A stretch of 64,000 nt of DNA from a virus (lineage: Duplodnaviria; Caudoviricetes), in IMG/VR virus record IMGVR_UViG_3300044957_001482, positions 1 through 64,000 of that record; one strand, written 5' to 3'. The notes under the pieces were generated by a model that worked only from the letters and a program-made list of their open reading frames with translations, was not told the origin of the DNA and ran no database searches. Of the stretch, positions 25,823 through 32,591 are shown piece after piece. Each line of letters opens with the position of its first letter. Position 1 is the first letter of the stretch. The position numbers were made by a program, and so were the translations under genes.

Positions 25823-26572
25823 TTATGAGGTGACGTTGTCTACTATGGCCAGTTCCACAGCGGTTTGCGGTGTGCCTGACTTGATCACTGTGCCTTCGTC
25901 GGTGAAGAAGTTGGCCGCATAGCGTTGATTATTGACCACACTGGTAGCAGCATAATCACTGCCGCCGGCCCAGTTCAACAACCACTTGTTGGTTAATTTG
26001 CTGATGGTAGTGGCCGTGGAGTCGCCCAGGGTATAGGTAATGGCCATCAATCCTGCAGCAGGTGTGGTATCGTCATCCAGCACGCAGACTCCCACTAGGT
26101 TACAGGTACCATTGCCGTTGTTGGAACCTTCTGCAGTGGCTGTAAACACTGTGCCCACTGCATAGCCAGCTGGTGCGCCAAACAGTGTCCAGTCAGTGCT
26201 GCCCACTGTGGCAATGATGTAGGAATTTCCAGTCACGATGCCTTCGTCCTGGACGGTAGTGGTTGATCCTACCAGGTACTTGTGGGCACCTTTTTGGCGG
26301 ATGATGTAACCAGTGGCCACACCTTGACCCGATCCTGATGTCAGCTGTATGTTGACAATCACTCTCACTCGAGGAAATGTGGTGCTGGGGGTATCTGTGG
26401 GGTTGGCTCCACCAACCACACCCAGAAACTGTGTGCTGTTGAGGGTGTCAGCGGTGTTGTAGACCGGATTGGTCAGGCTTCCAAAGTTAGGAAAGCCAAG
26501 ATCCACACCGACTGACTCTCCGCTGTTGCCCGAGCCGGTGGAAAGTTTTTGAATTTTGAGAGGACGTCCCAT
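25823..26572 (-). CDS. Virion structural protein (MGRPLK N-terminus)
   Basis: Strong SD AAGGAG; GYIIRQKGAHKYLV motif; Thr/Gly-rich. Confidence 0.6.
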   Translation of the reverse strand: MGRPLKIQKLSTGSGNSGESVGVDLGFPNFGSLTNPVYNTADTLNSTQFLGVVGGANPTDTPSTTFPRVRVIVNIQLTSGSGQGVATGYIIRQKGAHKYLVGSTTTVQDEGIVTGNSYIIATVGSTDWTLFGAPAGYAVGTVFTATAEGSNNGNGTCNLVGVCVLDDDTTPAAGLMAITYTLGDSTATTISKLTNKWLLNWAGGSDYAATSVVNNQRYAANFFTDEGTVIKSGTPQTAVELAIVDNVTS

Positions 26573-26578
26573 TTGTTT

Positions 26579-26662
26579 TCTCCTTTAAAGAAGTCCGATG
26601 TGGGTTCTAGCCACTACGCGGTGGTTTCCGCATAAAACGCCGTTTGCGTTGACAAGTATTTA
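26579..26662 (-). promoter_or_regulatory. TAAATA late promoter plus four-hairpin 5' leader
   Basis: Stems AACGC/GCGUU, UAUGCGG/CCGCGUA, GUGG/CCAC, CUUCU/AGGAG. Confidence 0.5.
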
Positions 26663-28445: not shown

Positions 28446-28703
28446 GCGTTATCTCGGTGTTCTACGAAATTATTTATGAATTTTTGCAGACTCGCCCAGC
28501 TGATCGGTCAGGTCAAGCACACAAACACCTGTCCCGATTGCCGGTAGTAAGCCGCGCCAATGCCAATACCGGCCGCGTCGCCCATCTCGTCCGTTCTCGG
28601 CAGTTACCGTGCCTCTATGGATCGCCCCGATGGCAAACTGAGCATCGCCCACCGGACTTACTTGTTTTTCTCACATCGGGAGGCGCCAACCGGCAGGAGC
28701 GGC

Positions 28704-29072
28704 TTACTCGAACGACTTGACCTTGGTCGGAAATGCGCCGTCAGATCGACCCTTGAGGTAAGAGTAGAGCGCATCGATTTTTTCGGCACCGAGCGCGTCG
28801 TGCGGGGGCATGCCCCTTTCCGGCCGGCCTTTGGCGATCGTGGTCATCACCTCGTCCTTGGTCATCTTTTTGAGCGAATCAATCAGGGCTGGACCGACCA
28901 GGCCCTCCTGGTTGGCACCGTGGCAACGCTCGCAGGCCGCCGAGCGCCACGTTTGGAAACCCTTGAAGGTCTTGCTATCGACCAGCCCGTCCTTGACCGT
29001 GTAGGGGGCATCGTCGGCCAGGACCGGAGCGGCAAAGCCCAACAGCAGGGCAGTCAGAACAACGCGCTTCAT
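28704..29072 (-). CDS. Exported monoheme c-type cytochrome
   Basis: Sec signal (MKRVVLTALLLGFAAPVLA), CERCH heme motif, GMP axial Met; SD AAGGAG; GC-rich. Confidence 0.9.
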   Translation of the reverse strand: MKRVVLTALLLGFAAPVLADDAPYTVKDGLVDSKTFKGFQTWRSAACERCHGANQEGLVGPALIDSLKKMTKDEVMTTIAKGRPERGMPPHDALGAEKIDALYSYLKGRSDGAFPTKVKSFE

Positions 29073-29196
29073 CTAAACATCTCCTTCTTGACAATTTGGG
29101 TCGCTGAACAACATCGGAAGTTTAGATTGTGTCGGCACCCTTGTATACAACGCTGTCACTCAGAACCCGTTTAGCGGGCCACTGCCAAATTTACCA

Positions 29197-29334
29197 CTAT
29201 TCTCCGGGTCGAGCATTACCGTTGTAGTTGGCAATGGTTTCCCGCGCATTGTCTTTCATCACAGCGCGGCTGATACCAGTGATGTTGTCGTAGGGTGGTT
29301 TGGTGCCACCAAACCACCTTTCCTTATACTTCAT
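29197..29334 (-). pseudogene. Probable disrupted phage gene remnant
   Basis: 45-aa ORF with PPYDNITGISRAVMKDNARETIANYNGNARPGE; 5' end built from a palindrome and tandem repeat. Confidence 0.3.
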
Positions 29335-29351
29335 CTTTCCTTATACTTCAT
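29294..29351. repeat. 12-bp perfect inverted repeat plus 17-bp tandem direct repeat
   Basis: GGTGGTTTGGTG-C-CACCAAACCACC, then (CTTTCCTTATACTTCAT)x2. Confidence 0.9.
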
Positions 29352-29364
29352 ACAGCAATACCTA

Positions 29365-30567
29365 CTATCTATATTTATATTTTGTCGCCTCTTCACTACC
29401 ACCTGTGGCATTACCTTTGGAGTAACTGTGGGCGCCAACACCGGCCAACACACCATCTTTGACCACTAAGTACTCATTGCGAATAGGGCGGTGTTCAAAA
29501 TAACATTCCAATACTTCTCGCACACCTGCCGCATAACGAGTCTGAGCACTCAAACTGGTTCCAGAAATATGTGGAGTCATGCCATGATTTGGCATAGTGC
29601 GCCATGGATGGTTTTGGGGTGCTGGTTGTGGAAACCAGACATCTCCTGCGTATCCTGCTAAATGACCACTTTCTAAAGCTCGGGCGATCGCATCACGATC
29701 ACAGATTTTACCTCGGGCAGTATTGACAATGTAACTGCCTCGTTTCATTTTTGCTATCATTTCTTCATCGAACAAGTGTTCTGTTTCTGGATGCAACGGA
29801 CAATTGATCGTAACAATGTCGACTGCCTCGACCAGACTTTCTACACTATCATGCCAGGTCAAGCTCAATTCTTGTTCTACCCGTGTCGGCAAACGATGAC
29901 GATCAAAATAATGTAAATGCACATCAAATGCTTTTAATAACTTCAATGCTCTTAATCCAATACGACCTGCGGCAACAGTGCCCACATGCATACCTTCAAT
30001 ATCATAGCTTTTGACAACACAATCTGCGATATTCCATCCGCCCTCGATGACTTGTTTGTAACTAGGAATATAATTACGCACTAAACTCAACATCTGCATT
30101 ACAATATGTTCAGCTACCGAATTACTATTACAGTAGGTGATTTCTGCCACTGTGATGCCACGCTCCATCGCAGCTTGTAGATCTACGTGATCGGATCCAA
30201 TACCTGCTGTAAGAGCCATTTTAAGTTTTGGCGCACTAGCGATCCGTTCGGCAGTTAAATATGCCGGCCAAAAAGGTTGGCTGATTACTATTTCTGCATC
30301 TGGCAAATGTCGATCAAATTCTGAATCTGCACCGTCTTTGTCTGATGTGACAACCAACTCATGTCCCATACTTTCTAAAAATTTTCTTAGACCCAATTCG
30401 CCAGTTACGCTGCCTAATAATGTGCCAGCCTGAAAATCCACTTGATGTGGATTAGGAACTGTTTGTCCATCTGGATAATGCGTTATTCTAGGAATATTAT
30501 TTCTTGCATAGCTGGTTGGATAGCCGTTTACAGGATCATCATATAAAACACAAAGCACTTTTGACAT
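29365..30567 (-). CDS. fdh: NAD-dependent formate dehydrogenase (EC 1.17.1.9)
   Basis: KVLCVLYDDP, ISQPFWPAY, AGIGSDH, SVAEH, AAGRIG, DRH, NTARG (Arg), WFPQP (Gln), TPHISGT (His); Pseudomonas sp. 101-type FDH. Confidence 0.96.
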   Translation of the reverse strand: MSKVLCVLYDDPVNGYPTSYARNNIPRITHYPDGQTVPNPHQVDFQAGTLLGSVTGELGLRKFLESMGHELVVTSDKDGADSEFDRHLPDAEIVISQPFWPAYLTAERIASAPKLKMALTAGIGSDHVDLQAAMERGITVAEITYCNSNSVAEHIVMQMLSLVRNYIPSYKQVIEGGWNIADCVVKSYDIEGMHVGTVAAGRIGLRALKLLKAFDVHLHYFDRHRLPTRVEQELSLTWHDSVESLVEAVDIVTINCPLHPETEHLFDEEMIAKMKRGSYIVNTARGKICDRDAIARALESGHLAGYAGDVWFPQPAPQNHPWRTMPNHGMTPHISGTSLSAQTRYAAGVREVLECYFEHRPIRNEYLVVKDGVLAGVGAHSYSKGNATGGSEEATKYKYR

Positions 30568-30611
30568 ATAAATTTCTCTCCTAGGTATATGTAATATATC
30601 TGCTGCCCAAA

Positions 30612-30654
30612 TAAGACTTTATCTCTTGCGAGATGCGCTTTCACACAGGTCTCA
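30612..30654 (-). promoter_or_regulatory. Candidate cis-regulatory RNA (three-way junction) in the fdh leader
   Basis: P1 UGAGAC/GUCUUA; P2 GUGU-GAAA-GCGC; P3 AUCUC-GCAA-GAGAU. Confidence 0.45.
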
Positions 30655-30659
30655 AGTAT

Positions 30660-30688
30660 ATTTTACATTATTTGTTAACAGGATGCAA
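30660..30688 (-). promoter_or_regulatory. Sigma70-type promoter for fdh
   Basis: TTGCAT-17 nt-TAAAAT on the minus strand. Confidence 0.55.
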
Positions 30689-30689
30689 A

Positions 30690-31008
30690 TTAAACTGAAA
30701 AACTACTGCCACATCCGCATGTTGTTTTTTTCATTTGAATTTGAACTTGAACTAACAAATTGTGAGCCTTGTAGTTTATCTGTTTTGTAATCTATAGTTG
30801 CTCTATCAAAATACTGCATACTTAATGAATCTACTAGTAATTTATTGATAATAAAATCATCTTCATTCTTTTCATCTTCAATGGTAAATACATGGTTAAA
30901 TCCTGCACACCCGCCGCCAGAAATAAATGCTCTTACATATCTTGTGGTGGGTTCATCAAGTAAAATTTCTTTAATTTTTTTCTGTGCATCTTGGATTATT
31001 GTTAACAT
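30690..31008 (-). pseudogene. iscA: A-type Fe-S carrier IscA/ErpA (HesB), frameshifted before CGCG
   Basis: GGGCAG, LLVDSLSMQY, GSQFV; KTTCGCGSSFSV* lies in another frame after an A7 run (30725-30731). Confidence 0.8.
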
Positions 31009-31017
31009 ATTTAGTTC

Positions 31018-31329
31018 CTAACTACAAACACATTTTAAATGATAGTCTTTGACTGCTGCCTTAATTGTATCTTCGGCAAGAATACTGCAATGTATTTTTA
31101 CAGGCGGCAATGATAACTCTTCCGCAATGTGAGTATTCTTTATGCTGACAGCTTCATTGAGTGTTTTACCTTTAATTCATCTGATTACAAGACTTGAACT
31201 GGCAATAGCACTACTGCAGCTGTAAGTCTTGAATTTTGTATCTTCAATAATACCTTGATCGTTAACTTTAATTTGTAGTTTCATTACATCGCCGCAGGCA
31301 GGTGCACCTACCATACCTGTTCCTACAGT
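31018..31329 (-). pseudogene. iscU: Fe-S scaffold IscU, 5'-truncated with in-frame stop
   Basis: VGTGMVGAPACGDVMKLQIKV...LPPVKIHCSILAED; TGA at 31177-31179; YGCGSA motif reads YSCSSA. Confidence 0.85.
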
Positions 31330-31342
31330 TATTTTACCCAAC

Positions 31343-31368
31343 AAAAAAGCACCCGAAGGTGCTTTTTT
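31343..31368 (-). terminator. Rho-independent terminator after the major capsid gene
   Basis: AAAAAAGCACC-UUCG-GGUGCUUUUUU with C(UUCG)G loop. Confidence 0.9.
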
Positions 31369-31394
31369 GATACTTCGTAAAACTGATTTTTTGA

Positions 31395-32591
31395 TCAGCT
31401 GAACGAGAGATTGCTCACTGCGATTTCTCCCACATAGTCGCCAGCATTGCCGAACGACGAAGCAGTGTTGGTCAGTTCGATGTAGCCATAGCGAGTCATG
31501 AAGCTCACGACCGGTTCAAACGTGGTTGGATCCAGCACAACACCCGAGCTCATCAGCGGGATGTACGGGCAGTAGAACGCAGGAGCGTCTGCTTCCGACG
31601 AACCCTTGTAGCCGACCAGAACCGGAGTGGTGTCTGCGGCATACGAGTCAACGAACACACGCATAGCGCCATTGAGCGTACCAACGAACTTGGTGTTAGT
31701 CGGGGCTTCAAAGACGCCTTCGGTGGTGCGAGCAAAGGCCGAGGTTGTAGCCGATTGCAGCACGGTGAGAGCAGCACTTGAAACCACTGCATAGTTACCA
31801 GCACCGCGACGTGTGCGCTGAGCGATCAAGTTGGCAACACGGTTGATCAACACAGCCAGAGCAGCATGTTCGTCGCCAACGAATGTGGCAGTGCCCGAAA
31901 CAGTGGCTTGGTTGTAAGTGAACTCGGTGCTGGCCAGGCTGCGCAGACTCAAGAGGATTTCTTGGTCGATTTCAGCGGTGATTTCTTGGGCCAGAGCAGC
32001 CATGATTTCGGCTTCAACGTCGATGCCGTGCATGGCTTGAGCATCTTGGGCCGATTCAAATGTCCAACGTGCCTGCAGTTTGCGAGTTTTGGCTTCAACT
32101 GCTTGCTTGAGGATTTGAACCGAAATCTGCTTACCACCAGTGCCTTCCATGGTCGCTGTGTTGCCACCGGTATAGGCAGTGGCAGTGCTCACGTCCTTGG
32201 GCACTGTTGAGTATGCCGTGGCAATGGTGAACGGGCTCAGTGCTTCCTGGCCTGCTGTTACCGAAGTGGCAGCAGCCGACGAGTCAGTTAACGATTGAGC
32301 ATAACGCACACGCAGAGTATGTATCTGACCAACCGGGCCGGTCATGGGCTGCACACCAACCAATTCATTGGCGATCACAGTGGGCATGACCCGACGGATC
32401 ACTGGCAGGATCACACGATTGAGTGTGGCGATGTTGCCAGAAGCGGTTGAACCAGACGAGGCATTTTCTTTGAGGTACTTGCGAGTATTCTCAAGGATAA
32501 CCTTCATGCTGTTGCGCCGGGTTCCGTTCAGACCTTCAAGAAGGGCCTCTTTGGTCTCTTCCCACCGGCTTTCTAATAATTCTTGTGACAT
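31395..32591 (-). CDS. Major capsid protein (gp23-like)
   Basis: VGVQPMTGPVG, AKTRKLQARWTFE, EITAEIDQE, FYCPYIPL, FMTRYG. Confidence 0.96.
   Translation of the reverse strand: MSQELLESRWEETKEALLEGLNGTRRNSMKVILENTRKYLKENASSGSTASGNIATLNRVILPVIRRVMPTVIANELVGVQPMTGPVGQIHTLRVRYAQSLTDSSAAATSVTAGQEALSPFTIATAYSTVPKDVSTATAYTGGNTATMEGTGGKQISVQILKQAVEAKTRKLQARWTFESAQDAQAMHGIDVEAEIMAALAQEITAEIDQEILLSLRSLASTEFTYNQATVSGTATFVGDEHAALAVLINRVANLIAQRTRRGAGNYAVVSSAALTVLQSATTSAFARTTEGVFEAPTNTKFVGTLNGAMRVFVDSYAADTTPVLVGYKGSSEADAPAFYCPYIPLMSSGVVLDPTTFEPVVSFMTRYGYIELTNTASSFGNAGDYVGEIAVSNLSFS

Follow-up and report, generated by a model that had tools for sequence, protein, structure and literature searches.

The structured-looking leader of a mobile phage formate dehydrogenase gene: a riboswitch candidate re-examined

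Does the short spacer ahead of a formate dehydrogenase gene (fdh) in a T4-like lake phage encode a ligand-sensing RNA, or is it an ordinary leader? The question is raised by a stretch of 64,000 nt (the window, meaning the whole stretch that was analyzed), in which a leader of 121 nt, running from 30688 to 30568 on the minus strand, lies in the spacer between an iscA/erpA-like ORF and fdh. A first-pass annotation, made from the letters, had placed a promoter and a riboswitch-like three-way junction here, proposing that the RNA senses a C1 or redox ligand and holding the role of a 5′ stabilizer in reserve. Formate dehydrogenase has also been noted in pelagimyophages, for which the same paper states that a riboswitch scanner found none (PMC7029224). 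The leader and its gene comprise the following elements.

30688–30683, minus strand: −35-like hexamer TTGCAT, with which the fdh module begins
30665–30660, minus strand: −10-like hexamer TAAAAT, at a 17-nt spacing from the −35-like hexamer
30654–30612, minus strand: proposed three-way junction, 43 nt, with junction strands CU, none, and AAA
30654–30649 with 30617–30612, minus strand: P1, 6 bp (UGAGAC/GUCUUA)
30646–30635, minus strand: P2 (GUGU-GAAA-GCGC), with a GAAA loop; two of its four pairs are G·U
30634–30621, minus strand: P3 (AUCUC-GCAA-GAGAU), with a GCAA loop
30611–30568, minus strand: rest of the leader (UUUGGGCAGCAG, AU-rich stretch, Shine–Dalgarno sequence (SD), and spacer)
30611–30600, minus strand: UUUGGGCAGCAG, directly 3′ of P1 and followed by the AU-rich stretch
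30582–30578, minus strand: SD AGGAG, with a 10-nt spacer to the ATG
30567, minus strand: ATG of fdh
30567–29365, minus strand: NAD-dependent formate dehydrogenase gene, 400 aa, intact (Pfam 2-Hacid_dh_C, NF005750)

The letters were read correctly in the first-pass annotation. TTGCAT-17-TAAAAT occurs literally at 30688–30660, the letters and complementarity of P1 and of both GNRA-capped hairpins were confirmed at 30654–30612, and UUUGGGCAGCAG and the SD are both present downstream of the hairpins, all on the minus strand. The downstream gene is indeed an NAD-dependent fdh (2-Hacid_dh_C, 2e-50; NCBIfam NF005750, 693 bits, with the cut-off at 329). Applying the usual 7-nt rule to the hexamers, the transcription start is predicted at approximately 30653 ± 2 on the minus strand, and the first base of P1 (30654) lies within 1–2 nt of it. 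The promoter-like match is not enriched, with 8 such sites in 4 kb versus 6.8 ± 2.6 in shuffles. Several other identities for the spacer were rejected: reading the sequence revealed no TATAAATA of a T4 late promoter and merely 1–4-codon frames for a leader peptide, ARAGORN detected nothing tRNA-like in the locus around the element (L083), no hammerhead or other small ribozyme was matched in Rfam, and an origin as a duplicate from elsewhere in these phages was set aside after blastn-short gave chance 12–16-mers only.

The record to which the window belongs is a T4-like phage of 98,178 nt (CheckV, 28% complete) with a GC content of 49–55%, and the 17 runs containing the stretch are all lake-water metagenome DNA. 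The leader lies in a low-GC island, whose surroundings and contents are listed below, together with a tmRNA gene of the relatives.

37304–35508, minus strand: portal gp20 (PF07230, 4e-102)
34366–33722, minus strand: prohead protease (PF03420)
32591–31395, minus strand: major capsid gp23 (PF07068, 3e-96), with its stop at 31397–31395
31368–31341, minus strand: intrinsic-terminator-like hairpin with T run, 27 nt past the gp23 stop
31329–29346, minus strand: low-GC island (iscU remnant, frameshifted iscA, fdh module, and 14 nt of old downstream sequence)
31329–31018, minus strand: iscU remnant, 5′-truncated, with an in-frame TGA at 31179–31177
31008–30703, minus strand: iscA/erpA-like gene with a 7-nt insertion that shifts its frame close to the 3′ end
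30688–29360, minus strand: fdh module (leader, gene, and 5 nt), 1.33 kb, which in relatives sits between iscA and a permuted tmRNA gene
L081 299–778, minus strand, and L168 2267–2611, plus strand: permuted (two-piece) tmRNA of the Betaproteobacteria type

The GC content is 0.31 in iscA (GC3, 0.235) and 0.32 in the leader, with a GC3 of 0.32 in fdh, as against 0.54–0.58 (GC3, approximately 0.58–0.61) in the genes flanking the island. Two contigs that are of 34–37% GC throughout, L081 and L082, match the window at 94% over 31329–29346 and nowhere outside; both carry, in order, an intact iscU (128 aa, TIGR01999), iscA/erpA (103 aa, NF010147), the leader, and fdh. The upstream side of the island lies beyond the hairpin behind gp23, which has a 5-bp GC-rich stem, a TTCG loop, and a T run, and to which the weak Rfam sRNA-like rows at 31337–31412 correspond. 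Just past the other edge, on the minus strand, a 17-nt unit is perfectly duplicated in tandem (29351–29335 and 29334–29318) and is followed by an 11-bp inverted repeat (29317–29294) with no T run on that strand; these repeats (29294–29351) may have been left as a scar at the junction, or may terminate the convergent plus-strand gene at 28560–29174.

The genes of the island have fared differently. The iscU remnant lacks its first ~25 codons and start region and carries two Gly-to-Ser changes, and its TGA at 31179–31177 is TGG in relatives and a Trp codon in the contigs of all four runs compared (X5, X6, X7, and X11), a comparison that covered 40 of the 188 difference rows. In iscA, the 7-nt insertion near 30727 shifts the frame, with loss of the C-terminal Cys motif; the ancestral stop was the TAA at 30692–30690. 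By contrast with iscU and iscA, which the alignments show to be decaying, fdh has been kept: its 62 differences from L081 fall 49 at third and 13 at first or second positions, and the gene is, by this measure, under purifying selection. Of these differences, 35 lie in a 200-nt patch at 29930–30129 (minus strand), presumably a mosaic segment acquired by recombination with a third fdh allele.

Comparison with fdh-less relatives places the upstream boundary of the module at the first base of the leader. In L168–L170, the next-closest iscA phages (86% aa), homology extends to 30689, one base past the iscA stop, and then diverges, and the contigs of three of the four runs compared (X5, X6, and X11; X7 being the fourth) are likewise unlike the window from 30689. 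The sequence that follows iscA in L168 resumes in L081 five bases past the fdh stop, such that L168–L170 have iscA directly followed by the tmRNA gene, and L081 has iscA, the fdh module, and the same tmRNA gene. The tmRNA was recognized by RF01850 and RF04321 in both L168 (118.3 and 133.5 bits, respectively) and L081 (94.9 and 110.4 bits), with ARAGORN giving the tag ANDEKFALAA, and its type suggests that the low-GC donor lineage may have a betaproteobacterial host. The gene orders thus show 30688–29360 to be a module, evidently inserted between iscA and the tmRNA gene in low-GC lake phages; as the island boundaries further show, the module and a piece of the low-GC backbone were carried later into the T4-like phage, behind the gp23 terminator. 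The island looks like a recent transfer between unrelated lake phages.

Morons are autonomous promoter–gene–terminator insertions between conserved phage genes, and the fdh module shares with them its insertion between genes adjacent in relatives and an upstream region of its own. It differs in that no terminator was found after fdh, the tmRNA of L081 starting 5 nt later, and in that its promoter is a predicted one. The gene itself occurs at 84–90% aa identity in many phage-like contigs (L002–L009, L086–L093, and L110) with differing upstream neighbors (IscU in L004/L005, a tRNA in L087, and small ORFs elsewhere), and the closest cellular fdh genes among the matches listed are at ≤76%, apart from two MAG contigs at 86%. 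It appears that fdh is a widely shuffled auxiliary gene of aquatic phages.

In contrast to the gene, the leader has a very narrow distribution. By eye, among the nine closest viral loci, it was common to L001 alone (98% aa); L002–L009 (84–87% aa) have short leaders and unrelated upstream sequence, and the leader was not found in 13 metagenome loci (76–90% aa, the nine closest being at 84–90%). Another fdh phage contig, L093, has just CCTAGGAGA, at the SD, in common with it. A covariance model of the element (54 positions and 15 pairs) was run over 83 + 80 + 80 + 80 sources, drawn from the fdh relatives in viral contigs (80 of 83 confirmed), metagenome contigs (the best 80 of at least 552 confirmed), and genome contigs (the best 80 of at least 547 confirmed), and from the IscA relatives in viral contigs (the best 80 of 127). 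It matched only the window and two contigs, one listed as L001, L081, and L167 and the other as L082 and L166; all other rows among the 323 sources had E above 1. One copy was found in the whole 98-kb record, one in the 25,413-nt record of L082, and none in the records of L168–L170. The three element-bearing records, lake-phage sequences that are ~94–95% identical here, contrast with ~240 other fdh homologues among the matches listed, including phage genes at 84–90% aa, upstream of which the element is absent.

Wider searches gave the same picture. Exact and degenerate scans of all IMG/VR contigs returned no further homologue: holding P1 and the loops constant but leaving the stems free gave two extra matches, both of them coding sequence without the stems; with GAAA-N4-P3 fixed, the four extra matches were unrelated, one being a terminator hairpin; and a piece of the 3′ leader matched L081 and L082 alone. 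Furthermore, blastn ("distant") of 29300–31100 against the phage GenBank collection gave no match, and no relative of the leader was detected elsewhere in 1.18 Mb of phage and bacterial DNA.

Among the three records, 14 of the 15 base pairs are invariant, one changes from U·G to C-G, and none shows a compensatory change; this pairing-preserving substitution is the sole change in the 43 nt. When the window is compared with L081, there are 7 differences in the 135 nt of the leader and 1 in the 43 nt of the junction, compared with 49 in the 401 third positions of fdh, which nominally indicates conservation of the leader (p = 0.012) and of the junction (p = 0.032). This excess was dropped, the divergence being mosaic: in the 400 nt of fdh adjoining the leader, only 10 of 133 third positions differ. 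Conservation of the junction does not exceed that of the remaining leader sequence (p = 0.28), and the most variable portion of the leader is the promoter-like part: L082 has TTTCAT and TAAAGT as hexamers, four changes in their spacer, and a 1-nt deletion just downstream of the −10-like hexamer.

The claim that the leader folds into the junction survived in part—that is, the fold forms when the element is cut out alone, but is a minority fold in transcript context. Folded in isolation, the 44 nt—a window picked after inspection of the element—gave the junction at −11.7 kcal/mol (z = −2.27, with 9 of 200 shuffles as stable). When the entire spacer was shuffled with dinucleotide composition preserved, its best 44-nt window was equaled in 17 of 200 cases, and its best 40-, 50-, and 60-nt windows in 25, 38, and 45 of 200, respectively. 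In 93-nt and 163-nt contexts, the minimum-free-energy structure is another fold, with z-scores of −0.59 and +0.27. The predicted ensemble probability of the junction is 0.002–0.055 for starts at 30654 or 30656 or with upstream sequence included, and 0.0015–0.02 in the three natural variants with starts at 30654–30652. The fold that competes with P1 and P3 is an extended hairpin built around P2 by pairing between GAGA (from P1) and UCUC (from P3); P2 is the sole piece found in every predicted fold. A start at 30653 or 30652 would reduce P1 to 5 or 4 bp.

Architecturally, the element is uncommon. A descriptor consisting of two GNRA-capped hairpins of ≥4 bp, 0–3 nt apart, within a closing helix of ≥5 bp matched this site alone in the 98,178-nt record, had one or more matches in 30 of 400 Markov-simulated 98-kb sequences (mean, 0.08), and matched once in 1,466,173 nt of natural loci, both strands counted. 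That single other match lies in L042, ~700 nt downstream of the fdh there, and no analogous junction was found upstream of any other fdh. Because the descriptor was composed after the element had been seen, this rarity is merely suggestive as an argument against chance, and the junction exceeds chance expectation only weakly.

The reading favored here, to which a probability of roughly 0.44 is assigned, is that the 121 nt serve as the lineage-specific 5′ leader in a self-contained fdh module made up of sigma-70-like hexamers, the structured leader, the SD, and the gene; the hairpins would at most stabilize the mRNA. Transcription of fdh would start from the leader's promoter-like site, giving an mRNA that begins at approximately 30653 ± 2; this source is the most likely one because fdh, which alone in the island is intact, lies downstream of a terminator and of two defunct genes. 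The first ~40 nt of the mRNA would then fold into compact GNRA-capped hairpins, the base-paired 5′ end of which may hinder 5′-end-dependent decay of the RppH/RNase E type while leaving the SD open. The leader would sense no ligand and carry no switching logic, its effect being generic. The 5′ stabilizer, the fallback of the first-pass annotation, is tentatively the most plausible role left, with the start site a predicted one.

5′-Terminal stem-loops stabilize bacterial mRNAs and slow 5′-end-dependent decay in E. coli, as reportedly described by Emory, Bouvet, and Belasco in 1992, by Bouvet and Belasco in the same year, and by Arnold and colleagues in 1998. With the 5′ UTR stabilizers of E. 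coli ompA and papA, the fdh leader has in common a hairpin near the 5′ end (here a predicted one), an accessible SD, and the lack of a ligand; it differs in having no sequence relationship to them, in that its structure would be small and branched where theirs is a single hairpin, and in that both its start and any stabilizing effect are putative. Nothing in the fdh leader is categorically new.

In favor of this leader model are the 17-nt spacing of the hexamers, the position of P1 at the predicted +1, the open predicted SD, the uncommon architecture (1 occurrence versus 0.08 expected per 98 kb), and the substitution that preserves pairing. Against it are the equal frequency of promoter-like sites in shuffles, the alteration of both hexamers in L082, one of the two relatives, the low probability of the junction and its unremarkable z-scores, a degree of conservation about that of nearby neutral sites, and the short, unstructured leaders of other phage fdh genes.

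The same observations lend themselves to a reading in which the fold is due to chance, and this is nearly as likely as a structured leader. The leader would then be junction sequence that travels with fdh and may or may not hold a promoter, its hairpins being functionless, which is a serious possibility, if somewhat short of an even chance. It accounts readily for the shuffled spacers with an equally stable 44-nt window, for the minority status of the junction in context, for the restriction of the element to three nearly identical records, for conservation indistinguishable from the local synonymous rate, and for the matches of a post hoc descriptor in 30 of 400 random sequences. It accounts less well for the abutment of two GNRA hairpins within a 6-bp helix (0.08 expected per 98 kb, and a single match across 1.47 Mb of natural DNA), for their placement in the sense strand of a spacer that is among the few long ones, with their start at the predicted +1, and for the preservation of pairing by the single substitution.

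A role at the end of the preceding transcript, whereby the hairpins would act not for fdh but on the iscU–iscA mRNA of the native low-GC phages, by ending, pausing, or protecting it, is improbable: the hairpins do lie 36–80 nt past the ancestral iscA stop, and a weak U-containing stretch follows P3, but the terminator scan of the spacer was negative, the stems are short (4–5 bp) with no U run after them, and the hairpins are part of the inserted fdh module and not of the iscA backbone, fdh-less relatives passing straight from iscA to the tmRNA gene. A related comparison is with the PeSLs of T4-like phages, which, according to a published description, are repeated through the genome as composites of a terminator and an early promoter (PMC4122927). 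The fdh leader, also from a T4-like phage, combines a promoter-like site with stem-loops bordering a variable gene module, but its hairpins come after the promoter-like site and not before it, and a PeSL cassette is excluded by its single copy (in both the 98,178-nt record and the 25,413-nt record of L082) and its lack of a terminator.

The least likely reading is the one that raised the question, namely that the junction binds formate, NAD(H), folate, ZTP, or a phage or host protein and so controls fdh translation, as a riboswitch or protein-responsive operator. Speaking for it are the three-way-junction shape with which the leader of this redox/C1 enzyme gene begins, the involvement of the 3′ strand of P1 in the alternative fold, and the rarity of the architecture. 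The purine, TPP, c-di-GMP-I, THF, and ZTP aptamers in Rfam are three-way-junction riboswitches, with which the fdh leader shares a P1/P2/P3 topology in a 5′ leader; in contrast to these, the fdh junction is much smaller (43 nt), matches no model, bears GNRA caps in place of conserved loops and junctions, and has neither an expression platform nor phylogenetic spread or covariation. The statement of the first-pass annotation that no known riboswitch matched holds for Rfam 15 as well: a 3-kb stretch gave no match on the element at E ≤ 10, the only row for 181 nt searched with the laxest filters was one of 15.8 bits on the plus strand (E = 9.3), and nothing on the element reached a gathering score. 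A catalogued candidate cis-regulatory RNA does occur 4 kb from the fdh leader, where the Rfam "freshwater-2 RNA" motif RF02980 is matched at 26570–26651 on the minus strand (79.1 bits; gathering score, 49.9), overlapping the start codon of a 249-aa ORF (25823–26572, minus strand) with no Pfam family.

The means by which ligand binding in the leader could be transduced to fdh expression are also not apparent. In the leader of the window, with 27 nt of coding sequence included, the SD is unpaired with a mean probability of 0.83 when folding is unconstrained and of 0.77 when the junction is enforced, and accessibility is similar in L081 and L082 (~0.8 unpaired). Because formation of the junction leaves the predicted accessibility of the SD unchanged, no expression platform is visible in the modeled leader, and the scan of the spacer found no terminator-like site. 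With five unpaired junction nucleotides and two GNRA caps, there would be little room for a ligand pocket. Moreover, neither the covariance model (323 locus sources, including the window) nor the descriptor (1.47 Mb) found the junction upstream of any other fdh homologue, and covariation is absent. The ligand-sensing claim is not supported, and a lack of conservation and covariation upstream of homologues, which the first-pass annotation had named as an outcome that would refute it, is what was observed. A tiny, lineage-restricted regulatory RNA that binds a metabolite (formate or NAD(H)) or a protein and tunes the translation or decay of the fdh mRNA is highly doubtful.

If it were true, such an RNA would constitute a new ligand-sensing class and a rare case, in lake phages, of an auxiliary metabolic gene under riboswitch-like metabolite control. 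The evidence points away from a riboswitch and toward an ordinary lineage-specific leader, such that the candidate can be removed from riboswitch lists. Overall, a more apt description of the locus is a mobile fdh module, one exchanged between unrelated lake phages and accompanied by isc genes that are decaying, with fdh retained.
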